Source: an uncultured Candidatus Saccharibacteria bacterium
GTDB lineage: Bacteria > Patescibacteriota > Minisyncoccia > 2-02-FULL-40-12 > GWA2-44-9
NCBI GenBank assembly: GCA_964553025.1
Contig: CAZKJF010000018.1
Coordinates: 1,641 to 65,640 of the forward strand
Direction: 5' to 3'
DNA length: 64,000 nt
Each line of letters starts with the position of its first letter. Position 1 is the first letter of the stretch. Of the stretch, positions 3,375 to 48,566 are shown in pieces. A program made the position numbers and the translations under genes. Below the pieces are notes generated by a model that saw only the letters and a program-made list of their open reading frames with translations, had not been told where the DNA came from and did not search any database.

Positions 3375-4930
3375 GCCAGGTTCTTTTCTTCCGCGAACAG
3401 AATTCCGAGAACCACGCTGAAAAATAGGAGCGCGCGCTCATCAAATAACGCTACATCAGTCATCAGATATGCCAGAACCCACGGAATTGAGATTAAACCC
3501 GCAGCATAGTAGGCCGAGAAAAAACCGTTTTGGGATGACCGGAATTTCAGATACAGTGTTTTCAAGATCAGCCAGACAAGATAAAGAGCAGCCAAAAGAG
3601 CCGGAATTCCCATCTCGGCGGCGATGTGAAGATAGATATTGTGAGCCGAGGAACCCGCCCGCGAGAGCTTAATGTCTTGATCCAAAACGACCGGGAAGTT
3701 GCCAATGCCAACGCCCAAAAGGGGCCGAGCTTCGATTGAAGAGAGCGTTTGTTTCCAGATTAGGATGCGCTGGGCATTGGATGTCTCGCCGAAATCAAGA
3801 ATTGATTTAATCCGTTGTTGAAGCAGCAACGCGTTGCCCTTGGAAACGAGAAATTGGGGCGAAGCGAAAATCGGGTACGCGATGCTGAATAGAAGAATGA
3901 ATATTGTCAGGTAGGATGCGACATATTTGAAGACATTGCGAGTCGGAAGCGGCACGCGCGTGTGGCGTATGAGCCAGATGACCAAGAAGCTCCAAACGAC
4001 GACTGCGGCCGCGCCCGCCCAAAACCCGCGCGTGCCGCTTAAAATCACGAACAAGAATATTGCCGGAATCCAAAGGACGGCCAGACTGCCGCGCGTTCGA
4101 ACCATGCTCCAGAACCGCTCCGCCCGCGCCAACGGTTTTTGGATGCTCCAGGCAAAGAATGCCGGCAAGCCGAGTAAGAGAAAGATCGGAAAAGAATGCG
4201 AATCCGGGAAAAGCGAGAATACGCGCAGTGAGAGCTGATCGCCGAAATACGCGAACCAGGTATTGCCGACGTGCGTTGCGATATAGGACCACTCGGTGCC
4301 GAATTGCCGAAGCTGGATTCCCTCGCCCCAGATGCGCATAAATTGATAGATGTCGACCAGGTATGTCGCGCAAACTTGGATTATTCCGACTGCCAGCGCG
4401 ATAATCACTGGCACCGTGAGGTTTCGAATCAGGCGGGCCGGCCGCCGGCCCGCCTGATTCCACGCGACGACTCCGATCAAAGCCGCATTGACGAAATAAA
4501 TTATTCGCTTCAGGCCTGCGACTGGATCCGGTGAATGCCACAGCGACAGGAAAGCCAGCAATATAAGCGCGTGGAGCGCGACTGCTGCCGGGTGTTTGTG
4601 GAAAAATTCGTGCGGATGATTGATCGCTAACTTCAATTCCCCGACCAGATAGCGCCGGGTTTCCGGCGCAAAGAGCCATTTGCAAAAAATAACGATTGAA
4701 AACAAGCGCCATTGATTGAAATTATCAAACGATGCGGTAAGCGGAATTGCAATAAAAAGCGGGATTGAGCGGACAAAAAAGACTATCCCATCTTCCAGAT
4801 TCATCAATGCCAGAGCGACGATGAGGATTCCGGTTTCCCAGATGACCAGCGACCGCGGCGCCAGCCCGGAAACGACAAGGCCAAAAAAAATCAGGTGAGC
4901 GATAAATAATGAAAGAGAAAATTTCTTCAT
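3371..4930 (-). CDS. O-antigen ligase / polymerase-like polytopic membrane protein (Wzy/WaaL family)
   Basis: 519 aa with more than 10 predicted TM helices, embedded between glycosyltransferase genes. Overlaps both neighbours by 4 nt. Confidence 0.55.
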   Translation of the reverse strand: MKKFSLSLFIAHLIFFGLVVSGLAPRSLVIWETGILIVALALMNLEDGIVFFVRSIPLFIAIPLTASFDNFNQWRLFSIVIFCKWLFAPETRRYLVGELKLAINHPHEFFHKHPAAVALHALILLAFLSLWHSPDPVAGLKRIIYFVNAALIGVVAWNQAGRRPARLIRNLTVPVIIALAVGIIQVCATYLVDIYQFMRIWGEGIQLRQFGTEWSYIATHVGNTWFAYFGDQLSLRVFSLFPDSHSFPIFLLLGLPAFFAWSIQKPLARAERFWSMVRTRGSLAVLWIPAIFLFVILSGTRGFWAGAAAVVVWSFLVIWLIRHTRVPLPTRNVFKYVASYLTIFILLFSIAYPIFASPQFLVSKGNALLLQQRIKSILDFGETSNAQRILIWKQTLSSIEARPLLGVGIGNFPVVLDQDIKLSRAGSSAHNIYLHIAAEMGIPALLAALYLVWLILKTLYLKFRSSQNGFFSAYYAAGLISIPWVLAYLMTDVALFDERALLFFSVVLGILFAEEKNLA

Positions 4931-6912
4931 ACGAGAGTTTTTACGATTGTAAGCCAGCGCTCGGTAAATTTCAGCCAGGAATAGCGCGCGCCGTGCGCAG
5001 GGCCTTCTGTTTTAATCCTATTCACTTTCGCCGTGTCCGTCAAAGCTTCCCGCATTGCAGCCGCAATGCGGGAAGGGCTGGCCTCGGTCGCATAAAACGC
5101 ATTATCTTCGAATAGTTCCCGCCCCAATTCGTTATCGGCGATAATCGGAGGTACTCCCAGCGCAAGTGCTTCCATCGGCGGCAAACCGAAAGCTTCACGA
5201 TCCGATACGTACAGGAGCGCCGCGGCATTTCGATATAAAACGGCTAATTCTTCTTGCGGCACATAATCTCGGTGACTTACCGCCTCGCGGCCAAGGGTTA
5301 AATTCACGGTTTTGACGATATAATCAATTGTCGGCGTTTCATATTTGTCGGGGCCAATCGTAATCAATCGGAAACTCGAAAATTCTTTGCCGATTTCTTT
5401 GAAAGCAAGGATCGTCTCTCGCAGATGCCGCCGCGGAAATGCTTGGCCGACGTACAGAAGATATGGATAATCAAGGACGGTGCCGCCTTCTTTCAGTTCT
5501 TCAATGTCTACGCCGAGCGGGTTGGCGATGATGCGTCGGGGATTAATGCGGTATAACCGCGCGACGTTTTTCTTTGAAGTTTCAGAAATGGTCATCACGC
5601 GCGACGCGCAATGAGCTGTCCACCAGCCGAAGATTCGATACGCCAGTCGGTAGCGGAACGGTAATTTCCCCTCGTGAGCCTCATAATAAATATCCTCGGT
5701 CAGAAGCGCGAACGAACGATTGAACGCGATGATCGGCAGCATATAGTTTGGCCAGAACATTACATTCAGACGCTCAAACCAGAGCTTAATCGGAAGCAAG
5801 AGATAGTAATAAATCGGGAACAGCCGCCGCCGAAACAGCGGGACGGGCGCAATTTTTTTCTCAAACATGGGTGATTTTAAAAACGGCAGATCAGGCGCTT
5901 CATCTTTGAAGTACAAAATAAATTCAAATGTTTCCGCCAGCTCGGGCTGCGCGGCGATTTGCTCGAGTAATTTAATGATCATTTTTCCGACTCCCCATAC
6001 TGGATTCTTGCCTTCGATTGATTCGCATTCGATGCCGACGCGGATTTTGGCGCCGTCGCCGCGATAGCCGACATAGAAGTCCTTGAAGCCAGCAAGAATC
6101 CCTTTGGAAGCTTCTGCATTTCTGCCCAGGAGTATCTTAAGCCATTGTTTCATTGCCACCCACCCGCTCCAGGGCACTGCCAAAAGAACTGCCCACAAGG
6201 GGCCGTGCTTGAAATTAAAGCGCAGCGCGCTGCGATAATGATGGCGAAATAAAAACGGCGAACCCATTTTGCCGGTAACTGCCGAAACCGCGTGGCGGAC
6301 TACAACATCATCGGTCAGGGTAAGCGGAATGCCGGCCCGATAGGCGCGAATGGAATAGTCGGCGTCTTCAAAATATAAAAAATATTTTTCGTCCAAGCCG
6401 CCGATGGTCTGGTAGGCGCGGCGGGATATAGCCATTGCCGCTCCGATTGCATAGGTATCGGGACCGATCCGTTCCGGTTTGTGGATATGCTGAAGCGTCG
6501 GTTTCAGCCACTGAATACTGCCCCCGTAGACGGTTCGGGAGCCCTCGTTGATAGCCAGGCCGACAAGCCCGTCTGAAGGGCCTAAAACGCCCTTCAGACG
6601 GGCGATAAAGTCAGTTTCGACCCAAGTGTCAGGATTGATCAGCAGAACCCAATCAGCCCCCTTTTTAAAGGCTTTAGCGAGGCCAAGGTTGCTGGCACCG
6701 GCGAAGCCGAGATTTCGAGGGCTGGAAATCAGATCAACCGAAGAGAAGTCTTGCTCAACCGCATGTTCGAGTTTTGTCCGGTCATGAGGCTTAGAATCAT
6801 TGTCCACGACAATCACCTCAAAGCTTGAATCGGTTTGATCCCGCAAAGATTTCAGGAGACGCAATAGTTCATCTGAGCCGTTGTAGTTGACGGAAACAAG
6901 CGATACTTTCAC
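4927..6912 (-). CDS. bifunctional glycosyltransferase (N-terminal GT2 domain fused to C-terminal GT4/GT1 domain)
   Basis: N-terminus MKVSLVSVNYNGSDELLRLLKSLRDQ..FEVIVVDNDS matches GT2. The C-terminus ...EALALGVPPIIADN...ELF is a GT4-type Rossmann motif. 661 aa. Confidence 0.7.
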   Translation of the reverse strand: MKVSLVSVNYNGSDELLRLLKSLRDQTDSSFEVIVVDNDSKPHDRTKLEHAVEQDFSSVDLISSPRNLGFAGASNLGLAKAFKKGADWVLLINPDTWVETDFIARLKGVLGPSDGLVGLAINEGSRTVYGGSIQWLKPTLQHIHKPERIGPDTYAIGAAMAISRRAYQTIGGLDEKYFLYFEDADYSIRAYRAGIPLTLTDDVVVRHAVSAVTGKMGSPFLFRHHYRSALRFNFKHGPLWAVLLAVPWSGWVAMKQWLKILLGRNAEASKGILAGFKDFYVGYRGDGAKIRVGIECESIEGKNPVWGVGKMIIKLLEQIAAQPELAETFEFILYFKDEAPDLPFLKSPMFEKKIAPVPLFRRRLFPIYYYLLLPIKLWFERLNVMFWPNYMLPIIAFNRSFALLTEDIYYEAHEGKLPFRYRLAYRIFGWWTAHCASRVMTISETSKKNVARLYRINPRRIIANPLGVDIEELKEGGTVLDYPYLLYVGQAFPRRHLRETILAFKEIGKEFSSFRLITIGPDKYETPTIDYIVKTVNLTLGREAVSHRDYVPQEELAVLYRNAAALLYVSDREAFGLPPMEALALGVPPIIADNELGRELFEDNAFYATEASPSRIAAAMREALTDTAKVNRIKTEGPAHGARYSWLKFTERWLTIVKTLV

Positions 6913-13080: not shown

Positions 13081-13716
13081 TTAACGGGAATAAAACTCGA
13101 TTATGGCTTGCAAGTCGTTGACGCCGATACCGCTTTCTTCGGGGGTCGTCATGCCTTTCACCGTCGCCGTCATCGTCTCTTTCTTTAATTCAATCCAGCT
13201 TGGCGCATCATACTTCGCCAGCCACTGCGGGACAAGATTCGTAAAGTAAGCGGCTTTTCGGCTTCCTTCTCGAACGGTAATGACATCGCCGATGCGGACA
13301 CGGAAAGACGGAATATTGACCTTCTCGCCGTTGACCAGGATATGGCCGTGATTGACGATCTGGCGAGCTTGGTCGCGAGACTGGGCAAGACCCATGCGGA
13401 AAACGACATTATCCAGGCGGTGCTCAAAGGCATTCAAAATGGTGCTGTAGGGTTCCTTTTTGGTGGCAACGGCTTTTTTGATATAGGCCTTGAACTGTTT
13501 TTCCAGCAAGCGATAGATGTTCTTTACCTTTTGCTTGGACTTCAGCTGGATTGCGTATTCGGAAGGCTTGCGGGAAGGTTTGCGGCCGTTAATACCCGGC
13601 GGATACGGTTTTTTGGTAATGGCAGTTTTGCCGTTTTGAGAACGTTCACCCTTGATGAGAATTTTCTCACCGATTCGTCGTTCTATTTTTTCTTTTGGTC
13701 CTGTATAGCGTGCCAT
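13081..13716 (-). CDS. rpsD: 30S ribosomal protein S4
   Basis: MARYTGPKEKIERRIGEKIL... matches S4. Confidence 0.9.
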   Translation of the reverse strand: MARYTGPKEKIERRIGEKILIKGERSQNGKTAITKKPYPPGINGRKPSRKPSEYAIQLKSKQKVKNIYRLLEKQFKAYIKKAVATKKEPYSTILNAFEHRLDNVVFRMGLAQSRDQARQIVNHGHILVNGEKVNIPSFRVRIGDVITVREGSRKAAYFTNLVPQWLAKYDAPSWIELKKETMTATVKGMTTPEESGIGVNDLQAIIEFYSR

Positions 13717-27062: not shown

Positions 27063-27791
27063 CTATTGGCTGATTTTGACTTGGATAAGGCAGCGGGTTT
27101 TGAGCCAATCGCGGGTGTTTGAATCGCGTGTGGAGACAAGATGATCTTGGACGGCCTGATTGAAGCGAGTGCAGACTTCAATCTTCCGATCGGAGCCGTC
27201 CGGCGTTTGAACATGTTCGGCCCGCTCGATCGCGCGATCCACTTCATCACGGAAGTCTTCGTTCAATCGCTGGATCATCTGGACGCGTTTTTGCGCCGAC
27301 GCCGGCAAAGGAGGGCGCGACGCCGAAGCGGTTACCGTTAGCACGGTCATCGTGGGAGCTGCGGTTCGGCTCAGCGTCGGCACAGACGTTGTTGCCGCCG
27401 CACGAAGCGCTTCCAATTCACGCAAACGCCGCTGGGCCAAGTCTTCATGGAGTTTTATTTTTTGTTCATCGCTCAAGGTCAAATCTAAACGCACTTGCTC
27501 ACTGACTCGTTTGAGCGGATAGAGGACATTATCAGTCGAGACGTCGGCATTATCAGCCAATGCCGCCAAACCGCCGGTACTGATAACAACCACAAACAAC
27601 GCAATGAACGCATAGCGCCAATAGCGGGCATGAGCCATCATTCGCGCAGTCGAATTTCCATTCATGGTTCGGACTGACTTCAAAAATGACTCGCGCGCCG
27701 AATCGAGGAATTCTTTTTCGGGCTGAAGGGCGTGGTGAACGCGACTCTTCAAGCGCCAGTGCCGAACGATGTCCTTAAAAGCCTGAATCAT
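27063..27791 (-). CDS. putative membrane-anchored anti-sigma factor
   Basis: Overlaps the end of the ECF sigma gene by 17 nt. Has a cytoplasmic N-terminus, one TM helix (YAFIALFVVVISTGGLAALA) and an extracytoplasmic coiled region. Confidence 0.55.
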   Translation of the reverse strand: MIQAFKDIVRHWRLKSRVHHALQPEKEFLDSARESFLKSVRTMNGNSTARMMAHARYWRYAFIALFVVVISTGGLAALADNADVSTDNVLYPLKRVSEQVRLDLTLSDEQKIKLHEDLAQRRLRELEALRAAATTSVPTLSRTAAPTMTVLTVTASASRPPLPASAQKRVQMIQRLNEDFRDEVDRAIERAEHVQTPDGSDRKIEVCTRFNQAVQDHLVSTRDSNTRDWLKTRCLIQVKISQ

Positions 27792-28320
27792 AAATTTTAG
27801 ATATTTTTTTCTTTAAGCGATGGATCATAACGCGCAAATTAGCTTCGGATTTTCCGGTCATAACCGCCAAATCCGCATATGAAACATCTGCGATGAAATA
27901 TGAATGGAATAACTCCCGCTCCTCTTCGGGAAGCTGTTCGGCTATTGCCAACACGCGCTGCATCTCGGCATTGGTCTGGACTTGTTCATTGGGGTCAACG
28001 ACATCAAAGCCGGTTTCTTGCATGGCTTCCAAAGACTGCACGGGTTTCTTTTGTCGAAAAGAATCAATCAGCAGATTGCGAGCGATCTGCCAAAACCAGG
28101 AACTGAAATTCCCGACTTCAGCGTTAAACTGGCCGATGTTTTGAAGCATCTTCGCGAATACCTCTTGGACAAGATCTTGGGCGATCTCTTTCTGGTTTGT
28201 TCGAGAAAGAAAGTAGCGGTAAAAGGAAGTTGCGAATCGGTCAAAGATGGCTGCTCCCGCCTTCTCGTCGCCTTTTTGAAGGCGTTTTGCCAAGGCATTT
28301 ATAGTTGCTGATTCAGACAT
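27775..28320 (-). CDS. ECF-type RNA polymerase sigma-70 family factor
   Basis: Region 2 (FDRFATSFYRYFLSR...EIAQDLVQEVFAKMLQNIGQFN...FSSWFWQIARNLLID) and region 4 (YADLAVMTGKSEANLRVMIHRLKKKI) of sigma-70. Confidence 0.85.
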   Translation of the reverse strand: MSESATINALAKRLQKGDEKAGAAIFDRFATSFYRYFLSRTNQKEIAQDLVQEVFAKMLQNIGQFNAEVGNFSSWFWQIARNLLIDSFRQKKPVQSLEAMQETGFDVVDPNEQVQTNAEMQRVLAIAEQLPEEERELFHSYFIADVSYADLAVMTGKSEANLRVMIHRLKKKISKIYDSGF

Positions 28321-28457: not shown

Positions 28458-29120
28458 ATGTTTAAAACAAAAGTTCTGCTTGTCAGTGCGGCAGCTCTTG
28501 CTCTTATGCCTCTTGCAACGTTCGCGCAAGGGATTGACGCTGCGGCTCATGTCCATGTCGGCGGCCGTTTCGGCTATTTTCGCCATGGTATTGCCCGCGG
28601 CATTCATAGCTTGAAAAATGCCGTTGTCGGCACAGTGAGCGCCGTGAACGGTAACGGTTCTTTCACCGTTACGAAAAAGGACGGCTCCGCGGTTACCGTT
28701 ACAACCGATGCGTCCACGAAAGTAAACGACCATGGCACGACAGCCAGCGCCAGCGCGATTACTCTGAATGATAAAGTCGTTGCCGGCGGCACGTGGAATG
28801 ATGCCAAGACGAGTTTGGCTGCCTTGCGGGTCCGCATTGTAGACAACATCGTCAGTCCGGTCGCTGATTTCTGGAAAAATCTATTTGCCGCTCATGCGGT
28901 CGTCGGTACCATTACCGCCATCAATGGCAATGTGATCACAATCGTCAATAAGGACAATGCGACTTTTACCAGCGATATTTCGAGCGCTAAACTCGTCAAG
29001 AAGAACGGCCTCGATAATGCCTCAATCGCCGACTTTAAGGTAAACGATAAAGTCGAAGTCCTCGGTTCGGTTAGCGGCAGTGTTGTTACTGCCCAGGTTG
29101 CCCACGATCTGACGAACTAA
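28458..29120 (+). CDS. secreted repeat protein (DUF5666-like beta-rich domains), divergent partner of the ECF sigma operon
   Basis: Signal peptide MFKTKVLLVSAAALALMPLATFAQG and tandem ~90-aa repeats (VVGTVSAVNGNGSFTVTKKDGSAVTVT... / VVGTITAINGNVITIVNKDNATFTS...). Confidence 0.6.
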   Translation: MFKTKVLLVSAAALALMPLATFAQGIDAAAHVHVGGRFGYFRHGIARGIHSLKNAVVGTVSAVNGNGSFTVTKKDGSAVTVTTDASTKVNDHGTTASASAITLNDKVVAGGTWNDAKTSLAALRVRIVDNIVSPVADFWKNLFAAHAVVGTITAINGNVITIVNKDNATFTSDISSAKLVKKNGLDNASIADFKVNDKVEVLGSVSGSVVTAQVAHDLTN

Positions 29121-29136
29121 TCTGAAACGAAGTCAG

Positions 29137-29172
29137 AAAAAACCAGCGGCCATTTTGGCCGCTGGTTTTTTC
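29137..29172 (+). terminator. rho-independent terminator (CCAGCGGCC-loop-GGCCGCTGG plus T6)
   Basis: aaaaaaccagcggccattttggccgctggttttttc. Confidence 0.7.
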
Positions 29173-29180
29173 TTCGATTC
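29172..29180 (+). promoter_or_regulatory. extended -10 promoter TGcTATAAT driving tRNA-His
   Basis: catgctataatt, 13 nt upstream of the tRNA 5' end. Confidence 0.45.
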
Positions 29181-29192
29181 CATGCTATAATT

Positions 29193-29268
29193 CGAAAACC
29201 ATGGGGATCATGGTGAAGGAGTTATCACAGCGCTCTGTGGCAGCGCGGTCACGGGTGCGAATCCCGTT
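29193..29268 (+). tRNA. tRNA-His (anticodon GUG) with encoded G-1 and C73
   Basis: Manual fold: acceptor GGGATCA/TGATCCC with an extra 5' G pairing discriminator C; U8; D-arm GTGA-AGGAGTTA-TCAC; anticodon stem GCGCT/AGCGC with loop CTGTGGC (U33, GUG); T-arm ACGGG-TGCGAAT-CCCGT; CCA encoded. The T-loop has G instead of U at position 55. Confidence 0.75.
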
Positions 29269-29291
29269 GATCCCCCCATCATTTGATAGTG

Positions 29292-30122
29292 CTAGGGCTG
29301 GAGAATATCGGCGGTGCGGCCGTTGATTGAGACGACGACGCTGTTGAAACCTGGAAATTGCTTAAGGGTATTCGTGATCTCCGAACGAATGGCGCCGACG
29401 CGGCAAGAACCAGCGACGCCTGCCTCCAAATTCTCGTCAAAATCCGCATACACAGTCTGGCCTTTCAGGGTAACGCTTTTTACCGTTACATTATCGGGAA
29501 TCACATCCTGGGCGCCTTTTTTCTTTTCAGCAGAAGTCGGTCCTTTGAGTAATTCAACAACGCTCATGAAGCCAGGCGAAGAGGTCTGGTAGACATCGCG
29601 CGGAAACAGCGTGGTCGTGCTGCAATCGTCTGAAGTTACATAGGCCACATACACAGTACGCGTCGAGATCGTCTTGAGCCGGACATCCACCGCCGCGTAC
29701 CCTTCATAGGTACCATCGCCTTTGGCCGATTCAGCGAGAGCTTCAATTTTCAGATTCATCATCGCGCTGGCCGGAATCGGGAGGCGGACGGAATAGTTTC
29801 CGAACTGGCCGGAATCGGCGGCATCAGTCATGGCATGTACGGAGGCAACGATAGCACCGTTTGCGTCGCGCGCCTGCACGGTAAATTGATTCTCGAATAC
29901 GCGCGCCTTGCCGGTAACTGTGATCACGGGATCAACCGATTGATTCTCGGTCGGTGAGGTAATGGTGATATTGGGCTGGCTTGAAGGACTCGGCGAACGA
30001 GTCAATGCTGCCGTTGAAGACGGACTGGGAGTTGAGGCAAGGTGCGGCTGATATTTCGACCATATCAACCAACCGGCAGCCACAGCTACGATTACTGCGA
30101 TAATGGTAATGAATGTTTTCAT
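29292..30122 (-). CDS. secreted GerMN / Gmad2-like domain protein (LpqB-like)
   Basis: Signal/TM anchor followed by a PS-rich linker and an Ig-like plus GerMN-like C-terminal half (TLFPRDVYQTSSPGFMSVVELLKGPT...VTLKGQTVYADFDENL). Confidence 0.5.
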   Translation of the reverse strand: MKTFITIIAVIVAVAAGWLIWSKYQPHLASTPSPSSTAALTRSPSPSSQPNITITSPTENQSVDPVITVTGKARVFENQFTVQARDANGAIVASVHAMTDAADSGQFGNYSVRLPIPASAMMNLKIEALAESAKGDGTYEGYAAVDVRLKTISTRTVYVAYVTSDDCSTTTLFPRDVYQTSSPGFMSVVELLKGPTSAEKKKGAQDVIPDNVTVKSVTLKGQTVYADFDENLEAGVAGSCRVGAIRSEITNTLKQFPGFNSVVVSINGRTADILQP

Positions 30123-30141
30123 GGGTGTTTTCTTGTTTCTG

Positions 30142-30212
30142 TCGGGACGCCGAGATTTGAACTCGGACTAAATCCTCCCAAAGGACTCGTGCTACCGTTA
30201 CACTACGTCCCG
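30142..30212 (-). tRNA. tRNA-Pro (anticodon UGG)
   Basis: Manual fold of the minus strand: acceptor CGGGACG/CGTCCCG, U8A9, D-arm GTGT-AACGGTA-GCAC, anticodon stem AGTCC/GGATT with loop TTTGGGA (UGG, G37), T-arm CCGAG-TTCAAAT-CTCGG, discriminator A, CCA not encoded. Confidence 0.75.
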
Positions 30213-30224
30213 AACCGTCCTCGT

Positions 30225-30488
30225 TCAACTCTTTCGATTCTGCTCACCCCACCGCCACGCGGCTTTCTCGCCGGTCAGCCAGCAGATGAAGATAAGAATG
30301 GCGACCAGGATAATTTCGTGGACAACAATTAGCGCCCCGATTGCACCGTCCATTTCGTCGGCCACGTCGATCTGGAGCACATTTCTCACCGTCAGAATAA
30401 CAAAAACAGCAAGAATTAACCAGCCCTGCCACGCCGCTGGATACCATCCATACCCGTATCGCTTGGCTTTGAACCAAATTCTTTTCAT
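30225..30488 (-). CDS. small two-TM membrane protein (87 aa) nested between tRNA-Arg and tRNA-Pro
   Basis: MKRIWFKAKRYGYGWYPAAWQGWLILAVFVILTV...ILVAILIFICWLTGE. Its ATG shares one nt with the CCA end of tRNA-Arg. Confidence 0.4.
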   Translation of the reverse strand: MKRIWFKAKRYGYGWYPAAWQGWLILAVFVILTVRNVLQIDVADEMDGAIGALIVVHEIILVAILIFICWLTGEKAAWRWGEQNRKS

Positions 30489-30562
30489 GGTGTCCTCGGA
30501 GGGAATCGAACCCCCATCAAGGCCTTAGAAGAGCCCTGCTCTATCCGTTGAGCTACGAGGAC
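30488..30562 (-). tRNA. tRNA-Arg (anticodon UCU)
   Basis: Manual fold: acceptor GTCCTCG/CGAGGAC, D-arm GCTC-AACGGATA-GAGC, anticodon stem GGGCT/GGCCT (two G-U pairs) with loop CTTCTAA (UCU, A37), T-arm GGGGG-TTCGATT-CCCTC, discriminator A, CCA encoded. Confidence 0.75.
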
Positions 30563-30644
30563 ATGCTGCCAATACTCTACACCAAAACTGCCGTTTCAGC
30601 TAGTAATTTCAACAAAAATTTGCTAGAGTAGCAGAATAACTTTT

Positions 30645-30715
30645 GCGGGATTCGTATATCGGTAATACATGAGTTTTCCAAACTCAAGAGACGGGTTCGA
30701 CTCCCGTATCCCGCT
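30645..30715 (+). tRNA. tRNA-Gly (anticodon UCC)
   Basis: Manual fold: acceptor GCGGGAT/ATCCCGC, U8, D-arm GTAT-ATCGGTA-ATAC, anticodon stem TGAGT/ACTCA with loop TTTCCAA (UCC), T-arm ACGGG-TTCGACT-CCCGT, discriminator U. Confidence 0.8.
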
Positions 30716-30733
30716 CCTTCAGTCCGGCAACAA

Positions 30734-30760
30734 TTGACGCCTTGGTACGTTTGATATAAT
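30734..30760 (+). promoter_or_regulatory. sigma70-like promoter TTGACG-N15-TATAAT; predicted TSS coincides with the rarA ATG (leaderless)
   Basis: TTGACG at 30734-39 and TATAAT at 30755-60. The ATG is at 30767, 7 nt after the -10 box. Confidence 0.45.
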
Positions 30761-30766
30761 AACGCC

Positions 30767-31903
30767 ATGCCGGAACCGTTGGCAGTCCACATCCGTCCCC
30801 AAAACCTCTCTGAATTCATCGGTCAGCGGCATTTGGTTGGCCGGGGCGGGCCCTTGGCTGTCGCCATCGAAAAGAAACACTTATTCTCGTTTATTCTCTG
30901 GGGCCCGCCCGGCGTTGGCAAAACGACCCTTGCCCGCATCTACGCCAAGGCGCTGAACGCCGACTATCACGAACTTTCCGCCGTTTCCGCGGGCAAAGAC
31001 GACATTCGAAAGATCGTAGACCAAGAGCAGACGCTGTTCGGGCCAAAAATCCTTTTTCTCGACGAAATCCATCGCTTTAATAAAGCCCAACAAGATTATC
31101 TCCTGCCCTTCGTTGAATCCGGCCGTTTGACGTTGATCGGCGCCACGACTGAAAATCCCAGTTTTGAAGTCATTTCGGCGCTCTTGTCGCGCTGCCGCGT
31201 ATTTATCCTTGAAGAGCTTTCGGATGAAGAAATGCACCAGATTATCCGACGGACAGGCTTTCCATTAACTCCTGAAGCCGCGGAGTGGCTGGTCGCCATG
31301 GCCGGCGGGGATGCGCGCCAGGCGATTACGATGATCGAGAACACCGCTAAGCTGTATAAAGAAATTACCGTCGAAAATCTTAAAAATACCCTGCAATCGA
31401 AATTTCTTCGCTACGATAAAAAAGGAGAAGAGCATTATAACACCATCAGCGCCTTCATCAAAAGCATGCGGGCCAGCCAACCGGACGCGGCGATGTACTA
31501 CCTCGCTCGGATGGTAGACGCCGGCGAAGACCCGAAGTTTATCGCCCGGCGAATGGTGATTTTCGCCTCAGAAGATATTGGCCTTGAGGATTCGCATGCG
31601 CTCGCGGTGGCCAATGCCGTCTTTCAGGCCGTCGAGACGATCGGCATGCCGGAAGCGGGCATCAATCTCGCCCACGGCGTAGCGTATCTATCCCAGTGCC
31701 CGAAAGCAAAACGTTCTTACGAGGCCTATCTGGCTGCAACGGAAGACGTCAAAAAATTCGGCAATTTGCCGATTCCGATGCTAATCCGAAATCCTGTTAC
31801 CAAGCTCATGAAGGAAGTCGGCTATGGTAAGGGCTATACCCGCTACCCGAAACAAGACCTGCTCCCCGAAAAACTCAAAGGCCGGAAGTATTTGAAAAGA
31901 TAA
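30767..31903 (+). CDS. rarA: replication-associated recombination protein A (RarA/MgsA AAA+ ATPase)
   Basis: FIGQRHLVG...[22 protein letters not shown] and Walker [17 protein letters not shown] match RarA. Confidence 0.85.
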
Positions 31904-34481: not shown

Positions 34482-36020
34482 ATGAAACCAATCGTTCTTG
34501 CCATTTTGGACGGGTGGGGCCATTCGACCACCCGCACCGGCAACGCGATCTTGAGCGCCCAGACGCCGACGCTCAACGAGATCGTCCATACCTATCCTTC
34601 CATGCTTTTGCAGGCGTCCGGACCGGCCGTCGGCATGACATTCGGCGAATCGGGCAACAGCGAAGTTGGCCACATGACGCTGGGCGGCGGCCGAGTGATA
34701 TTCCAGTACTTGATGCGGATCAATAAGGCCATCGAGAACGGGGATTTTTTCACCAATCCGACGCTCGTCGAGGCCGCCGCCCATGTCCAGCGCCACGGCT
34801 CGACCCTTCATATCGCCGGTTTGCTGACGTCGGGCGTCGTTCATGCTTCCTTCAATCATCTGGTTGCTCTCGTAAAATATGCCAAGACCAATAATATCTC
34901 ATATCGCCTTCATCTTTGGACTGATGGCCGCGATTCCGGCCTCAAAGAAGGCTCCGACTTGCTCAAAAAGCTTTCCGATGAGATCGGAGGGCTGGAAAAC
35001 CTAGCTACCGTCATCGGCCGCGATTTCGCCATGGACCGAAACAACAACTGGGACCGGACCGAAGCGACGTACAACTTGATCGCCAACGCCGCCGGGACCC
35101 AAGTTCCCGATATTTTCGCGGCCATGGGCGCGTACTACAAACAAAACATCACGGACGGCGCGATTCCTGCGACTGTCGTTACCCCATCGCCGCTGAACAG
35201 CGGCGATGGGGTCGTCTTCTTCAATTTCCGCGAGGACTCGATGCGCCAGATCGTCCGTGTTTTCACCGAACCCGGTTTCGATACGTTTCTTAAAAAAGTG
35301 CCTGATAGTCTGTTCATCGCCGGCATGACCCAATATCTCGAAAATCCGCAGCTTCGCGTCATCATGTCTCCGCCGAACGTCAAAAATTGCCTCTCGGAAG
35401 TGTTATCGCTGAACGGCAAAAAGCATCTCCATGTCGCCGAGACCGAAAAATACGCCCACGTAACGTTCTTTTTCAACGGGTTGCGAACTAAACCCTTTGA
35501 CGGAGAAACGGATTTCTTCATTGAATCACTGGAAAATCTGACCCAGCATCCGCAGATGCGCGCCGCGGATATCACCCAAAAAGTTGTAGCCGAAATGGAT
35601 CGGGATTTCTACGATGTCTTTATCGTCAATTATGCCAATGGCGACATGCTGGCTCATTTAGGCATCCTTGATGCGGCCATCCAGGGCGTTCAGGCCGTGG
35701 ATGCTTCCTTGGCCATCTTGAAACAAAAGGTTTTAGAAAAAGACGGGACGCTGATCATTACTGCCGACCACGGCAATGTTGAGGCCATGATCTACCAGAC
35801 CACCGGCGATCGAGAGACGCGCCACGATTCGAATCCCGTGCCGCTGTATCTCGTCGGCGCTCCGTTCGCTCGGTCGCGATCGGACGCGGAAATCGCCCAA
35901 TCTTATGCCCAAGTCAACGGCATCATCGCCGATGTGGCGCCGACGATTCTTGAATTGCTGGGAATTCAAAAGCCGGTCGAAATGACCGGCTCAAGTCTGC
36001 TCGGAATCCTCAAGTCGTAA
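34482..36020 (+). CDS. gpmI: 2,3-bisphosphoglycerate-independent phosphoglycerate mutase
   Basis: MKPIVLAILDGWGHS...GNSEVGHMTLGGGRV... and C-terminal ITADHGN match iPGM. Confidence 0.9.
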   Translation: MKPIVLAILDGWGHSTTRTGNAILSAQTPTLNEIVHTYPSMLLQASGPAVGMTFGESGNSEVGHMTLGGGRVIFQYLMRINKAIENGDFFTNPTLVEAAAHVQRHGSTLHIAGLLTSGVVHASFNHLVALVKYAKTNNISYRLHLWTDGRDSGLKEGSDLLKKLSDEIGGLENLATVIGRDFAMDRNNNWDRTEATYNLIANAAGTQVPDIFAAMGAYYKQNITDGAIPATVVTPSPLNSGDGVVFFNFREDSMRQIVRVFTEPGFDTFLKKVPDSLFIAGMTQYLENPQLRVIMSPPNVKNCLSEVLSLNGKKHLHVAETEKYAHVTFFFNGLRTKPFDGETDFFIESLENLTQHPQMRAADITQKVVAEMDRDFYDVFIVNYANGDMLAHLGILDAAIQGVQAVDASLAILKQKVLEKDGTLIITADHGNVEAMIYQTTGDRETRHDSNPVPLYLVGAPFARSRSDAEIAQSYAQVNGIIADVAPTILELLGIQKPVEMTGSSLLGILKS

Positions 36021-36419
36021 TTTTGGCCGCGGATTGAGCTGTCGCCGCTGGTTTATGATACCGCTCGGTTCGCCGCGGATGCTTCTCAGCCAGATCAGAT
36101 CGTCGTCCAGCCGTCGAACTAATTTCTCAATGGACGGGCCGGACAAACCTCGTTCCCAGCGATACTGGATCAAAATGTTCTGAATGTATTTCGTGCTCAC
36201 TTTCACCGATCCCACTTCGCAAAATGTCATACGCCGAAGATAGTATGTCAGATCGACGACTGTCTTGGGTTTCAAAACCTCGACGCATTTTCGTAAAACG
36301 TATAGTTTGCGAAATTTGGAAAGATAGTATTGGAAATCATCGGAGATTTTTTGTTCGTCCTCTTTCGTCAGAACATGGGGCCCGCGTTGTTGCATGAAGA
36401 ACTGGCCCCAGCGTATCAC
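35991..36419 (-). CDS. hypothetical protein (142 aa) co-transcribed downstream of mnmA
   Basis: 4-nt overlap with the mnmA stop. Its 3' end overlaps the convergent gpmI by 30 nt. Confidence 0.45.
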   Translation of the reverse strand: MIRWGQFFMQQRGPHVLTKEDEQKISDDFQYYLSKFRKLYVLRKCVEVLKPKTVVDLTYYLRRMTFCEVGSVKVSTKYIQNILIQYRWERGLSGPSIEKLVRRLDDDLIWLRSIRGEPSGIINQRRQLNPRPKLRLEDSEQT

Positions 36420-37456
36420 ACAATAATACCACCGCCAAGAAGTTCCCTGCCGCGATAGAACACGGCTGATTGGCCCTGGGTAACCGCTCGTTCCGGTTTG
36501 GCGAATTCAAGCGTGCCATCCTTGGCCAACCGGGCGCGCGCCGAAGGCGCGCGATACCGAACTTTGACATCGAGATTTCCGGCAGGATACGAGCCGCCAA
36601 TCCAGTTGCATTTCTTGACCCGAGTCTCGCTCAATGCAGCAGCAGCGTCTTCGCCGACGTATAAAACATTCTTTGCAACATCTTTGCCGATGACATAATA
36701 CGGCCCGCTTCCATCGGCAATGTCCAATCCGTGCCGCTGGCCGATTGTGTAGTAATACACGCCGTCATGAGCGCCGATTTTCCGGCCATCAAGGGCTAAA
36801 ATCTTGCCCGGCTTGGGTTTAATGTATCCAGTGAGAAATTCTTTCATGTCCAAGGGACCGATGAAACAGACCCCCTGGCTGTCTTTTTTGGCGTAATTTG
36901 GGAGCTTATATTTCTTGGCCAATACCCGGACTTCGGGCTTGGTATAATCGCCGATCGGAAAGATGCACCGCGCAAGCTGCCGCTGCGTCAGCGTCCACAA
37001 AAAATAACTTTGATCTTTGTTGGAATCTTTAGCTTGATAGAGTTTGATTCCGTGCGAAGTTTTTTTGAGCCGCACGTAATGGCCGGTGGCGATAAAATCC
37101 GCGCCGGCCGCAAGCGCTTTTTTGAGAAACAGCCCGAACTTAATCTCCTTATTGCACATGACGTCGGGATTCGGCGTGCGGCCGGCGCGGTATTCGCGGA
37201 TCAGGTAGTCAGTGACGGATTTTTTGTACTCGCGCGAAAAATCCCAGGTTTTGAACGGGATGCCGATCGCCGCAGCCGCGCGCAGCGCGTCCTCGCGATC
37301 TTGTTTCCAGAGACAAACGGGGTCCTCGTCGCCGCCCGGCTGCCACGGCTTCATGAACACGCCCACGACATCATAGCCCTGGCGTTTTAGAAGGGCGGCT
37401 GCAACCGCGCTGTCGACTCCCCCGCTCATCCCCACATACACGAGACCTTTTTCCAT
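36416..37456 (-). CDS. mnmA: tRNA-specific 2-thiouridylase MnmA
   Basis: PP-loop VYVGMSGGVDSAVAAALL followed by ...DVMCNKEIKFG... matches MnmA. Confidence 0.9.
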   Translation of the reverse strand: MEKGLVYVGMSGGVDSAVAAALLKRQGYDVVGVFMKPWQPGGDEDPVCLWKQDREDALRAAAAIGIPFKTWDFSREYKKSVTDYLIREYRAGRTPNPDVMCNKEIKFGLFLKKALAAGADFIATGHYVRLKKTSHGIKLYQAKDSNKDQSYFLWTLTQRQLARCIFPIGDYTKPEVRVLAKKYKLPNYAKKDSQGVCFIGPLDMKEFLTGYIKPKPGKILALDGRKIGAHDGVYYYTIGQRHGLDIADGSGPYYVIGKDVAKNVLYVGEDAAAALSETRVKKCNWIGGSYPAGNLDVKVRYRAPSARARLAKDGTLEFAKPERAVTQGQSAVFYRGRELLGGGIIV

Positions 37457-37493: not shown

Positions 37494-38759
37494 CTAGATG
37501 CCGTGTTCCTGGAGCCAGCGAAGCTTCACGAGATATCCTTTGGTTTCAATCGCTAATCCGCCTTTTTTGGAAGTCAGAGCGTTGATCCAATCTTGGATGC
37601 CGCTAATAATTGCGGCGGCCAAAGATTTATGGGCGCGCGTCGGCGAACCGTTATACGAAGCGGCGAGATATTCTTCCAAACGAGGATCTTTCAAAACGCT
37701 TTGGCCGTTGGCGGTAATCAGCGAGGTCAGATTCGTGTCGTACAGCAAAATTGCCGCTTTCATTGAATTTAACTGATCTTTAGCGCCTTCGGTGAAATCC
37801 TTAATTAAATTTGCTTTGGGATATTGTTTAACGATTTGTTTGTATGTTTGGGGCGTAAATTGAACCCAGCCGCAGGCGCTGGAAGAATTGCACGTATTGG
37901 CAAAGGCCAGCGATTGATTGGCGCCGATAATGACGTTGATCCGGTCAACCGTGCTTTGCGGATCAATCATAAATTCGGTCAGGTCGGTCTGCTCCAAATA
38001 CGGAATATGTTCGAAAAATTCCGCGTGCGGCTGCCAGACCGCGGCAACCGTGGAGCCGCTCACTGCCGCCGACGGGACGTCGGCGGCAGTGAGCTCCGCA
38101 AACGCTTGTACTACGACCGAATGCAAATACTGCTTGCCGGCCGAAATCAAATCGGGCGTATGAATATCGGGGCTGTAGGGCGAATAAAAGTAATAATCAA
38201 TATCCAAGCTCGACGTATCCCGATCGGGATAGACGTTTGCAATGATGATTTTGTTGTCCGGTTTCTCAACGCGGTAAGCGGTATTCCAACTGTTCCAGCG
38301 AATGCCGTTCGGCCGCTCTAAAATCGATATATTCCAACCGTCCGGCGCAATCAGATCAGCGCCATGTTTGACGATCGTAATGATTGAGATTTCTCCGGTC
38401 TTGCTATCGAGCGCGGCCAGCGCAATTTCTTTTTCCGGCTCTTTGAAGGTCCGGCTGGTAACCGTGGTTTGTCCCGTCGCCGGGTCTTGGCTGATCCGAT
38501 CTTCAGCGTATGAAATATCCTGCGTCCCGACTTTTAATTTCACATCCGCCAAAAGCTGATGAGCCGCCGCGATTTTGTCTTCAATGCTCCATGAAACCGG
38601 CGCCGGCGTCGTGATCACCGTCGAAATGACGCTCAATTGCCGAGGCGGAATCTTGCCGATGAAGAAAAAAACGGCCGCGCCGAGCCCAAGCACGCCCAAC
38701 AGAAGAACGGAAAGCCGATTCCGTCCCGGCGATGATGGTAAAAAATTCAAATCGGTCAT
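37494..38759 (-). CDS. hypothetical secreted/membrane-anchored protein (421 aa)
   Basis: N-terminal TM anchor. Co-transcribed with the upstream lytic transglycosylase (4-nt overlap). Confidence 0.5.
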   Translation of the reverse strand: MTDLNFLPSSPGRNRLSVLLLGVLGLGAAVFFFIGKIPPRQLSVISTVITTPAPVSWSIEDKIAAAHQLLADVKLKVGTQDISYAEDRISQDPATGQTTVTSRTFKEPEKEIALAALDSKTGEISIITIVKHGADLIAPDGWNISILERPNGIRWNSWNTAYRVEKPDNKIIIANVYPDRDTSSLDIDYYFYSPYSPDIHTPDLISAGKQYLHSVVVQAFAELTAADVPSAAVSGSTVAAVWQPHAEFFEHIPYLEQTDLTEFMIDPQSTVDRINVIIGANQSLAFANTCNSSSACGWVQFTPQTYKQIVKQYPKANLIKDFTEGAKDQLNSMKAAILLYDTNLTSLITANGQSVLKDPRLEEYLAASYNGSPTRAHKSLAAAIISGIQDWINALTSKKGGLAIETKGYLVKLRWLQEHGI

Positions 38760-40069
38760 AAGCTTTTCTCAATCTCGGCCGCAGTGCGCTGGACGGAATT
38801 CGCGTAGGAGTTGCAAGCCGCGGTCGAGCATTTTGAGTTGCCGCTGTAATATGCTTTTGACGCCGCGATTTCAGCAGCCGCCGTTTTGCCGGTTGCACCG
38901 CCATTAGCAAGCTTGATAGCCGCAGCCGTAAAGGCATCTTCGATATTCCAAGGATTGGCAGGGTGGCCGACGACAGCTGTTACCCGATCGACGTACGCGA
39001 TCCAGGTCGAAGGAATGAACTGTGCCGGCCCCATTGCGCCGCCCCAGCCGTATTGCTTGCCGTTAATGAATTGCGGGCAGGAGACCGCCGTATTGTTCGG
39101 ATCCAATCCAAGCTGGCTGGTGATCGTCAGGAAGGGCTGGTGATCGCGCGGGTGCATGATCGCCTGCCAATGTTTAGAGGGCGGGTCTTCCGGCCGGTTG
39201 CATTTGCCGACGTTTTTACCGAGTCCGGATTCGATTTCCAATTCAGCCAGTAAAAACGCCGGCCGAATACCCGCTGAAATCGCCGCGAGATTTCCGTATT
39301 TGATCGCATCGTCCACCGACACGCCATTTTGAGTCAAATACGTAATTTCGCTCTGCAGCCGCGTAATGTCCGTTTTAGATTGGGTCACCAGCTGCTGGAA
39401 CTTCGATTCCTGGCCTTTGGTATCCTTCAAAAGCTTATCTTTTTGAGCCTTGGCCTGGTTTAAACTGTCTTTTTCAAGCTGTTCAAGATTCTGCTGCTGG
39501 CGAAGATCGTCAAGCTGATCTTCAAGTTCGTTTTCTTTGTCTTCCAAGTCCGCGTGGACGGTTTTAATGTTGTCGATCGTGGCTTTAAGGTCGTCCTGGG
39601 TCGTCTCGACGCTATTTAGATCGTTAAAAAAATCGGACAATGTATCATGTTTGAGTAGAATGGTCGTTAAATTTTCTTGATCGTTCTTATAGACCAGGAG
39701 CAAGTATTGCGCCAAGGCCTGCCGGTCTTTTTCAATGCGATTCTCGGCATCAGTAATCTGGCTTTGAGTATCGGCGATCTGGAGATTTGTTTTGCTGATA
39801 GAAATATTCAAACTCTGAATCTCAAGCGAAATCTGGCTGATCTGGGCGTTCAAGGCATTCACTTGGCCTTGCAAGGTCAGGGCTTGGGAATGAATAACGT
39901 CGATTTGCGATTGATATTGATCAATCTGTTTTTGAAGTTCTTCGATCTGCTGGTTCTTGGCCGCGATGTCATCCTGAGTGGCCGCCGAAGCGTTGAAGAC
40001 ATGAAAAACCCAGGCGCACAAAGGCAAAACTAGGGCCAACGTCCAGAGATGATGCATTCGGAACTTCAT
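38756..40069 (-). CDS. secreted coiled-coil protein with C-terminal MltB-like lytic transglycosylase domain
   Basis: Signal peptide, ~230 aa of heptad-rich Q/L/E coiled coil, then a C-terminal ...KQYGWGGAMGPAQFIPSTW... block resembling the GAMGQ.QFMPS motif of MltB-family lytic transglycosylases. Confidence 0.6.
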   Translation of the reverse strand: MKFRMHHLWTLALVLPLCAWVFHVFNASAATQDDIAAKNQQIEELQKQIDQYQSQIDVIHSQALTLQGQVNALNAQISQISLEIQSLNISISKTNLQIADTQSQITDAENRIEKDRQALAQYLLLVYKNDQENLTTILLKHDTLSDFFNDLNSVETTQDDLKATIDNIKTVHADLEDKENELEDQLDDLRQQQNLEQLEKDSLNQAKAQKDKLLKDTKGQESKFQQLVTQSKTDITRLQSEITYLTQNGVSVDDAIKYGNLAAISAGIRPAFLLAELEIESGLGKNVGKCNRPEDPPSKHWQAIMHPRDHQPFLTITSQLGLDPNNTAVSCPQFINGKQYGWGGAMGPAQFIPSTWIAYVDRVTAVVGHPANPWNIEDAFTAAAIKLANGGATGKTAAAEIAASKAYYSGNSKCSTAACNSYANSVQRTAAEIEKSL

Positions 40070-47909: not shown

Positions 47910-48566
47910 CTATTGGACTGTCGGGAGAGACTGGCAGTCGCGGCCGTTATAATTCACGTCCGAGAGGGACACATAACCGGTAGCGCTGCCCTGGAGCGAG
48001 CCGTCCGAGAGGTCGACTTTAGCCCACGACGAAGCGGAAGTACCGGTTACTCCGGTAACTTTGGTGTAATCGCCGAAATGCATCGTCGCCACGACCGAAG
48101 CCGCAGCTGATTTGCTTGATCGGACCGGAATATCGGCCTGGGCCATGGTGTAGCAGGTAAACGGCGGCAAAGTCGGCATTTCCGGTACGTTATCGCAATC
48201 ACCCTGGAGCTGGAAATCGGCATCGGGCGGAATCCAGCGCAATCGGAACGGTCCGACATTCGGTGCTTGAGCGGAAGCCGGATCAAAGCCGACCCAGCCG
48301 TTGGCAGTCACGCCACCGGCGATAATCTGGTCATCCGAAGTGGCTTGGCCGAACACCGGCGCCTGGGTGCTGGGTCGGCTGTAAACGGTCGTCGTCTCGC
48401 GCAGTACAATATCGCACGAAGACGCGAGTCCCGTCGGAGAAACGCTGGCGCTTGCCGACGGAGTCGGACTGGTGCCGGCGTGTTCCGATCGCGGATTCCA
48501 GTACCATAAATAGAGGCCGGCCAGCCCAACCAATATGATAATGATGATCGAGAAAAGTGTTTTCAT
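47910..48566 (-). CDS. hypothetical secreted protein (218 aa)
   Basis: N-terminal TM/signal and a PS-rich linker. Confidence 0.45.
   Translation of the reverse strand: MKTLFSIIIIILVGLAGLYLWYWNPRSEHAGTSPTPSASASVSPTGLASSCDIVLRETTTVYSRPSTQAPVFGQATSDDQIIAGGVTANGWVGFDPASAQAPNVGPFRLRWIPPDADFQLQGDCDNVPEMPTLPPFTCYTMAQADIPVRSSKSAAASVVATMHFGDYTKVTGVTGTSASSWAKVDLSDGSLQGSATGYVSLSDVNYNGRDCQSLPTVQ

Follow-up and report, generated by a model that had tools for sequence, protein, structure and literature searches.

How is a protein-coding gene expressed when its start codon falls on the last nucleotide of one transfer RNA (tRNA) gene and its stop codon lies only a few nucleotides before another? This question is raised by an 87-residue open reading frame (ORF), here called ORF87 (positions 30225..30488, − strand), in a 64,000-nt stretch of contig CAZKJF010000018.1 from an uncultured Candidatus Saccharibacteria bacterium; this whole stretch is referred to below as the window. 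ORF87 is wedged between tRNA-Arg(TCT) (30488..30562) and tRNA-Pro(TGG) (30141..30212), both on its own strand, and a gerMN-like gene (29292..30122, − strand) follows. The reading we favor, with a probability of about 0.55, is that tRNA processing would release a near-leaderless ORF87 mRNA from a co-transcript of tRNA-Arg, ORF87, tRNA-Pro, and gerMN.

The tRNA genes that frame the question are well defined. ARAGORN, run across the 64-kb window, finds four tRNAs in total (His, Pro, Arg, and Gly), and the Rfam model RF00005 agrees, with all four scoring 53.5–66.5 bits versus a gathering score of 29; they lie where a reading of the locus made from the letters alone, hereafter the sequence-only reading, had placed them. 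On the − strand, the upstream junction of ORF87 reads ...CGAGGAC-A-CCA|TG, in which the terminal A of the CCA encoded by tRNA-Arg (30488) is also the A of the ORF87 ATG, as that reading had noticed. It had likewise seen that the protein gene sits between tRNA-Arg and tRNA-Pro on the same strand, which is confirmed. Downstream, its gaps need a small correction: 12 nt (30213..30224), and not 13, separate the ORF87 stop from tRNA-Pro, while the distance between the tRNA-Pro discriminator (30142) and the gerMN-like ATG (30122) is 19 nt instead of 20. CCA is not encoded in tRNA-Pro, whose discriminator A is followed by CAG. The ORF87 start is assigned to the tRNA junction because this codon is the first start downstream of an in-frame stop and an invariant tryptophan (W5) lies four codons on. 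In the folded precursor, the start codon directly abuts the base of the tRNA-Arg acceptor stem.

The same geometry recurs in the close relatives of ORF87, found at five loci (L001–L004 and L013) with 72–79% amino acid identity. Where the window reads ...GAGGACA-CC-ATG, the junction is ...GAGGACA-CAGG-GTG in L001, L003, and L013, and ...GAGGACA-CAGG-ATG in L004. In the alignment, the spacer from tRNA-Arg to ORF87 measures −1 to +4 nt across the window and all relatives, the discriminator-to-start spacer is 2–4 nt in window and relatives alike, and the ORF87 stop lies 10–13 nt from tRNA-Pro in every case. The ‘encoded CCA’ of the window may be the simple result of a spacer 2 nt shorter. A zero-length spacer between a tRNA and a gene is uncommon, here in a genome that apparently relies neither on Shine–Dalgarno (SD) sequences nor on long leaders.

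The homologues of ORF87, its substitution pattern, its invariant columns, and its structural model all indicate a real gene under selection, which encodes a small membrane protein with two helices. The sequence-only reading had named a lack of homologues or conservation as grounds for doubt, and neither is lacking: a word-indexed search returned 42 homologues, and a profile search among 1.84 billion entries returned 2,402 representatives of 50%-identity clusters at E ≤ 1e-3, with 816 at E ≤ 1e-10. At least 509 species genomes carry the family, among them members of the Candidate Phyla Radiation (CPR), DPANN archaea, Burkholderia, and Verrucomicrobia, and the hypothetical protein VG941_00565, from a metagenome-assembled genome labeled ‘Candidatus Paceibacterota bacterium’, has the same sequence as ORF87, which places the window in a CPR/Patescibacteria genome; GCA_035548855.1 and GCA_964479865.1 are related genomes. 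The ratio of nonsynonymous to synonymous divergence (dN/dS) against three close relatives is 0.10–0.17, at a synonymous divergence (dS) of 0.7–1.4. Twelve alignment columns are invariant (W5, F6, K9, Y11, G12, G14, W15, P17, W20, G22, G73, and E74); the family consensus is WFKAKRYGYGWYPATWQGW...LTGEKxRWRWG, and ORF87 itself bears the C-terminal motif LTGEKxxWRWG. An AlphaFold2 model (mean confidence, pLDDT, 83) consists of a short N-terminal β-hairpin (WFKAKRYGYGWYP) and transmembrane helices at residues 20–43 and 48–72, in agreement with the two-helix topology first proposed by the sequence-only reading. ORF87 has no Pfam match at E ≤ 0.1, and the 42 members only scattered ones (E > 0.006); NCBIfam gives nothing close to its cut-offs, and a Foldseek search of the PDB with the model returned no usable match (best E = 2.5). 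The Joint Genome Institute label ‘YhaH (DUF805)’ for the family was considered and found unsupported, as a single member matches DUF805, at E = 0.039.

The arrangement is as well preserved as the protein. ORF87 is present and syntenic in every close relative found, and all five loci keep the order rarA, tRNA-Gly, tRNA-Arg, ORF87, tRNA-Pro, gerMN, tRNA-His, DUF5666, extracytoplasmic function (ECF) sigma factor, with the 276-residue gerMN-like gene syntenic in L001, L002, and L004. Compared with L001 and L004, tRNA-Pro is identical at 71/71 positions, tRNA-His at 72/73, and tRNA-Arg at 67/72; tRNA-Gly is identical to that of L001 at 72/73, whereas the tRNA-Gly of L004 is a different one and lies on the opposite strand. 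Up to a dS of about 1.4, the Arg/ORF87/Pro/GerMN/His order holds. The next-nearest homologues of ORF87 (51–53% identity), however, belong to ordinary protein operons without tRNAs, so the tRNA-flanked state appears specific to a narrow clade, yet within it persists over saturated synonymous divergence.

ORF87 has no expression signals of its own. From the tRNA-Arg promoter region to gerMN, a consensus scanner detected nothing that resembles a promoter, and it found no terminator-like site in the spacers from tRNA-Arg to the end of gerMN; the sole − strand terminator-like match in this interval (30347..30331) falls within the ORF87 coding sequence, and such matches are no commoner than expected from shuffles (4 found versus 4.1 expected). 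A promoter inside tRNA-Arg was rejected, as no TAnnnT hexamer lies there at a suitable distance from the ORF87 ATG. With a spacer of 0–4 nt there is no room for a promoter, so co-transcription with tRNA-Arg is almost forced, and co-transcription of tRNA-Arg, ORF87, tRNA-Pro, and gerMN as one unit is strongly indicated. The putative promoter of this unit is a −10-like hexamer, TAGAGT (30574..30579, − strand), that ends 11 nt before the tRNA-Arg 5′ end. The hexamer is contained in a block, TTTTGGTGTAGAGTA, that is conserved in L001 and L003, ends 11 nt upstream of tRNA-Arg, and whose geometry matches that of an extended −10 promoter-like element read from the sequence before tRNA-His (TGCTATAAT, 29183..29191, + strand). 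The latter ends 11 nt before the G−1 of tRNA-His and was missed by the consensus scanner for want of a −35 hexamer.

How such a transcript might be translated can be judged from the window at large, in which 49 confident genes were compared with random positions. SD-core 4-mers occur at −20..−5 in only 3 of the 49 genes (4.1 ± 2.1 at random positions), and no SD precedes the gerMN-like gene. By comparison, a TAnnnT −10-like hexamer ends 5–9 nt before the start codon in 11 of the 49, versus 1.9 ± 1.2 at random. The missing SD signal, together with a −10 box 5–9 nt upstream of about a fifth of the genes, suggests a genome with widespread leaderless mRNAs and SD-independent initiation. Examples are TGATATAAT-6-ATG (rarA), TATACT-6-ATG (34482), and TATAAT-7-ATG (36416). 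The first belongs to the rarA/mgsA gene next to the tRNAs (30767..31903, + strand; MgsA/RarA in Pfam), whose near-consensus promoter, TTGACG-15 nt-TGATATAAT-6 nt-ATG (30734..30766), has a geometry that predicts a leaderless mRNA. Leaderless-type genes in the window include 4927..6912, 13081..13716, 30767..31903, 34482..36020, 36416..37456, 38756..40069, and 47910..48566.

These features can be rationalized into a series of steps. Transcription from the promoter just upstream of tRNA-Arg would yield one precursor containing tRNA-Arg, ORF87, tRNA-Pro, and the gerMN-like gene. The tRNA-maturation enzymes would then act as punctuation, with RNase P cutting at the tRNA 5′ ends and RNase Z, or an equivalent 3′ endonuclease, cutting at or beside the discriminator. 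The products would be an ORF87 mRNA with a 5′ end 0–4 nt before its start codon and a 12-nt 3′ tail, and a gerMN mRNA with a leader of ~19 nt. The ORF87 mRNA would be translated by the SD-independent, leaderless-type initiation apparently used by the rest of the genome. Two consequences are peculiar to this geometry. In the window, CCA and ATG share one A, so each precursor molecule could give an intact AUG or a complete CCA, never both, and repair of the tRNA would fall to the CCA-adding enzyme. Moreover, because the start codon abuts the acceptor helix in the folded precursor, it can be argued that processing precedes translation. Observed are the four tRNAs, a real gene, a conserved junction geometry, the lack of an SD signal, and the leaderless-type promoter geometry; co-transcription, the most strongly supported step, the creation of the mRNA by tRNA enzymes, and its mode of initiation are what we infer from them.

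Several points weigh against release of the mRNA by tRNA processing. The co-transcript, its cleavage sites, and the translation of the processed product are predictions from the DNA sequence, and the 64-kb window gives no indication either way about a gene for RNase Z. In some bacteria, among them B. subtilis, this enzyme is inhibited by an encoded CCA, and the tRNA-Arg of the window has one. Processing may even be needless for ORF87 translation, because internal operon genes are evidently translated without an SD or a nearby 5′ end. Finally, the ORF87 family is not significantly enriched beside tRNAs (see below), its nearest relatives outside the clade lack tRNA neighbors, and unrelated genes, too, start 4–10 nt after tRNAs.

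The main rival to the processing mechanism builds on these same points. It holds that ORF87 is co-transcribed but translated from the un- or partly processed precursor by SD-independent internal initiation, with tRNA excision irrelevant or competing, and that the 0–4 nt spacer is the end point of spacer loss through plain genome compaction. Most genes in the window are indeed internal operon genes that lack an SD or a nearby −10 box and yet must be translated, and the gaps from a tRNA to the next, unrelated gene on the same strand form a continuum (4, 6, 8, 10, 16, 18, 19 ... nt). The family, moreover, is not significantly enriched beside tRNAs. Nevertheless, a start codon held against the base of an acceptor stem in the folded precursor is a poor ribosome site. 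Because tRNA maturation generally runs rapidly and almost to completion, little precursor should remain, and the same kind of junction, of 1–4 nt, has arisen with at least four different tRNAs. We regard plain compaction as possible but doubtful, and keep release by tRNA processing as the preferred explanation.

Whether the ORF87 family has a particular affinity for tRNAs was surveyed in its 80 best genome loci. A same-strand tRNA lies within 40 nt upstream of the family gene at 4 of the 80, and ~30% of nearby tRNAs flank the family gene, equal to random placement among roughly seven intergenic gaps per locus; on these figures, the idea of an enrichment beside tRNAs was dropped. The tight junction nonetheless recurs independently with other tRNAs: tRNA-Leu(CAA)-CCA-TTCT-ATG in two Peribacteria loci (L006 and L024); tRNA-Ala(TGC) with discriminator-CAA-ATG on a Saccharibacteria contig (L056); and tRNA-Ser(GGA) 1 and 3 nt before the family gene in L093 and L095. 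Looser junctions span 15–37 nt. The Saccharibacteria contig (L056, 3..436) provides a second independent wedged case, in which tRNA-Ala(TGC), 2 nt, the family gene, 43 nt, and tRNA-Ala(CGC) follow one another. A pattern scan of metagenomes for a T-loop followed by WFKAK gave 79 matches, of which 74 were chance and five were real family genes after tRNAs, a result from which no frequency can be derived. Unrelated genes, for their part, begin 4–26 nt after a same-strand tRNA in the comparison loci. On one metagenome contig (L153), an unrelated 172-residue ORF (MKKQSAGLLVYRIKNGQLEVLIIHN...) begins 4 nt after a same-strand tRNA-Val(cac), which indicates that near-zero spacers are not confined to the ORF87 family. 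Thus, given the 4 of 80 loci, the random-like flanking share, and the unrelated genes close behind tRNAs, tight tRNA–gene junctions look like a general low-frequency feature of compact genomes and not a property of the family.

One tRNA species stood out in this survey. The usually rare tRNA-Ile(UAU) is found within 3 kb of a family gene at seven loci (L036 2552..2626, L037 846..922, L039 33..109, L040 3287..3363, L055 2855..2929, L084 70..143, and L091 2878..2952) and within 60 nt in four of them (L040, L055, L084, and L091). It makes up 7 of the 76 distinct tRNA contexts, far above the expected share of roughly 1 in 45; L055 and L091 belong to one lineage.

The position of ORF87 behind a tRNA also invites the view that it came in with a mobile element that inserted at a tRNA gene, either as cargo or as what is left of the element, and the sequence-only reading had alluded to tRNA clusters as integration hot-spots. 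In general, tRNA 3′ ends are classic integration sites. Disturbance of a kind that could be read in this way is seen at other loci. On the tRNA-Gly side of the island, L004 has an AT-rich ORF of 230 residues (1386..2155; GC content 0.30 versus 0.51 for the locus) with a weak helix-turn-helix match, and a tRNA-Gly(TCC) on the opposite strand that is identical to that of the window at only 50/73 positions; the AT-rich ORF and the different tRNA-Gly together indicate that this side has been remodeled by foreign DNA. In the second case (L009 2870..3000, and also L010 and L025), a relic of a tRNA-Leu 3′ half lies between tRNA-Leu(CAA) and the ORF87-family gene; in L009, it comprises GAGGGTTCGA, a 40-nt insert, and then ATTCCCTCCTTCGGCACCA. 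The end of the relic is identical to the 3′ end of the functional tRNA-Leu that directly abuts the family gene in L006, which points to an earlier duplication or recombination at tRNA-Leu.

The locus in the window tells otherwise. Neither the ORF list nor Pfam reveals an integrase or recombinase in the island. In the 64-kb window, no second copy exists of the 16- to 22-nt 3′ or 5′ end of any of the tRNAs, at up to 2–3 mismatches. The GC content of ORF87 is 0.511 versus 0.507 for the window, and both GC and GC at third codon positions (GC3) match the neighboring genes. The order of the island has held over a dS of about 1.4, and the family at large is chromosomal and widespread, in at least 509 species genomes. 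No support for an integration scar was found, the suggested link to an integration hot-spot is likewise unsupported at this locus, and an origin of ORF87 as mobile cargo is improbable. Two further observations on L004 concern its structure alone: as read by eye, the AT-rich ORF contains a putative LAGLIDADG-like motif, ‘LGLGIYLGEGT’, and the tRNA-Gly lies 10 nt upstream of tRNA-Arg on the same strand and would belong to the tRNA-Arg/ORF87 unit.

A different proposal is that CGAGGAC, which forms the 3′ strand of the acceptor stem of tRNA-Arg, also serves as an SD sequence 4–6 nt before the start, which needs the tRNA portion to be unfolded. The spacing is suitable, with GAGG 4 nt before the start codon in the window and 6 nt in L001 and L004; however, the motif is locked within a 7-bp acceptor helix, the genes of the window make no use of SDs (3/49 versus 4.1 at random), and no such motif is present at the Leu, Ala, and Ser junctions (CCTTCGGCACCATTCTATG; GGTAGGGTCCACAAATG). 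It was rejected on the last two grounds and is very unlikely. The notion that ORF87 is no gene but a frame left open by chance between two tRNAs, to which its shortness and its lack of a Pfam or NCBIfam match and of a ribosome-binding site lend some color, is refuted for practical purposes by its homologues, with 816 representatives at E ≤ 1e-10, its invariant motifs, its dN/dS of 0.10–0.17, and a confident two-helix model.

Release of ORF87 by tRNA processing would have its closest parallel in mitochondria, where the ‘tRNA punctuation’ of polycistronic transcripts was reportedly described by Ojala, Montoya, and Attardi in 1981. As in that system, ORF87 is butt-joined to tRNAs on both sides, its mRNA ends are predicted from RNase P and RNase Z cleavage, and the message would be leaderless and without an SD. 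The 1-nt overlap at the tRNA-Arg 3′ end would, again as in the mitochondrial case, have to be mended by the CCA-adding enzyme; a case comparable to the CCA/ATG overlap is that of the human mt-tRNA-Tyr/Cys genes, which also overlap (PMC4787750). Unlike in mitochondria, the locus lies on a bacterial chromosome of the free-living type that has many promoters, the unit comprises two tRNAs and two ORFs, tRNA-His and tRNA-Gly have putative promoters of their own, and the arrangement is known here from DNA alone.

Among bacteria, mixed operons of tRNA and protein genes have long been known, for instance, thrU-tyrU-glyT-thrT-tufB and tyrT-tpr in E. coli. An archaeal example is the tRNA-Lys inside the 5′ untranslated region of TK0306 in Thermococcus kodakarensis (PMC4247193). 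As in the tufB-type and TK0306 cases, tRNA and protein genes would here share one transcript from which the tRNAs are excised; in those cases, however, the protein gene has a normal leader and its own ribosome-binding signals, whereas ORF87 has 0–4 nt, no SD, and a second tRNA 12 nt after its stop. Given these operons, and the unrelated genes that follow same-strand tRNAs at 4–26 nt, the word ‘unusual’ that the sequence-only reading had applied to the embedded gene is too strong: the arrangement is neat but not extraordinary, with the gene embedded, very probably co-transcribed, and free of any sign of integration.

ORF87 also resembles the leaderless mRNAs of Actinobacteria, Deinococcus, and archaea, for which M. 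tuberculosis serves as an example (PMC3898074), in its 5′-terminal AUG or GUG start without an SD, in keeping with the −10 box found 5–9 nt upstream of 11 of the 49 window genes. The origin of the 5′ end would differ, as RNA processing would leave a monophosphate on the ORF87 mRNA, while transcription initiation leaves a triphosphate on a classical leaderless mRNA. With tRNA-targeted islands, ORF87 shares the position of a non-tRNA gene immediately 3′ of a tRNA gene, but not the integrase, the duplication of an attachment site, or the compositional shift, and its synteny is stable. By analogy, then, the arrangement might be described as a tighter tufB-type operon combined with actinobacterial-type leaderless translation, with workings as in mitochondrial punctuation, and not as a tRNA-targeted island. 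In a literature search of limited coverage, what came up on tRNA punctuation in bacteria was almost wholly work on organelles and eukaryotes, with no direct precedent, and a search similarly limited in coverage found nothing specific on leaderless translation in the CPR.

The rest of the island can now be placed around this unit. The sequence-only reading had called it a compact four-tRNA island; the tRNAs stand, but they do not form a single cluster, as the island is distributed over both strands, in what are probably three to four separate transcription units. tRNA-His(GTG) (29204..29278, + strand) has an encoded G−1 at 29203 and an encoded CCA. tRNA-Gly(TCC) (30645..30717, + strand) has no encoded CCA and is preceded by 15 nt by an extended −10-like element read from the sequence, TGCTAGAGT (30621..30629, + strand), a putative tRNA-Gly promoter divergent from that of tRNA-Arg. 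Neighboring genes of the island encode Gmad2/Germane, DUF5666, ECF sigma factor, and MgsA/RarA proteins. The 276-residue gerMN-like product, which matches Gmad2 (Ig-like, 3.7e-16) and Germane (GerMN, 1e-13) in Pfam, has a hydrophobic N-terminal anchor; its N-terminal region lacks a cysteine, and hence a lipobox, so the protein is signal-anchored and not lipoprotein-like, as had been proposed, although its gene does begin just after tRNA-Pro.

On the far side of tRNA-His lies a bidirectional intrinsic-terminator hairpin (29135..29173) with an 18-bp stem flanked by an A-run and, at its opposite end, a T-run; on the + strand, the hairpin is preceded by the DUF5666 gene. An Rfam ‘Thr_leader’ match at 29133..29216 coincides with this hairpin and was set aside as chance (28.8 bits versus a gathering score of 55). 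The gerMN-like gene and tRNA-His point toward each other, 13 nt apart and with no terminator in between, and the hairpin beyond tRNA-His is the only terminator-like one that the − strand operon can reach; consequently, the operon transcript would run antisense through tRNA-His, and the tRNA-His transcript antisense into gerMN. The ECF sigma factor gene (27775..28320), an overlapping gene for a DUF5667 protein (27063..27791), and the divergent gene for the secreted DUF5666 protein (28458..29120) form one block, which is also kept beside the tRNA island in L001 and L004.

What the ORF87 protein does may be glimpsed from its fusions. In several representatives, the ORF87 module is the N-terminus of a larger protein, most commonly with a NUDIX hydrolase as partner (six representatives: P0061, P0087, P0096, P0101, L042 3001..3723, and L075 3001..3723). 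Other partners are TspO/MBR (P0071 and P0163), Sua5/YrdC, a HAD hydrolase, and an MIP channel (P0064, P0104, and P0127), the last joined C-terminally. Fusion to NUDIX hydrolases and these other proteins suggests a role for the module as a membrane anchor or partner.

For annotation, the locus implies that gene callers and annotators should permit start codons that touch or overlap tRNA genes. Should the proposed mechanism be wrong, ORF87 would still be a tidy case of spacer loss in a reduced genome, and its family is large and unnamed (2,402 clusters), spread over the CPR, DPANN archaea, Burkholderia, and others. Should it be right, tRNA 3′ processing would generate the 5′ end of a functional bacterial mRNA, which would then be translated without a leader, a form of expression that is textbook for mitochondria but barely documented in bacteria. 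A bolder and only tentative extension is that Patescibacteria (CPR) and other tiny-genome prokaryotes might routinely make translatable leaderless mRNAs by tRNA excision, much like mitochondrial punctuation, that the ORF87 family might have been captured repeatedly 3′ of tRNA-Arg, Leu, Ala, and Ser, and that the 1-nt CCA/AUG overlap might make tRNA and mRNA maturation mutually exclusive in each precursor. Release of the ORF87 mRNA by tRNA processing, if true, would help explain how small genes are expressed in CPR genomes that have few promoters and lack SD signals.

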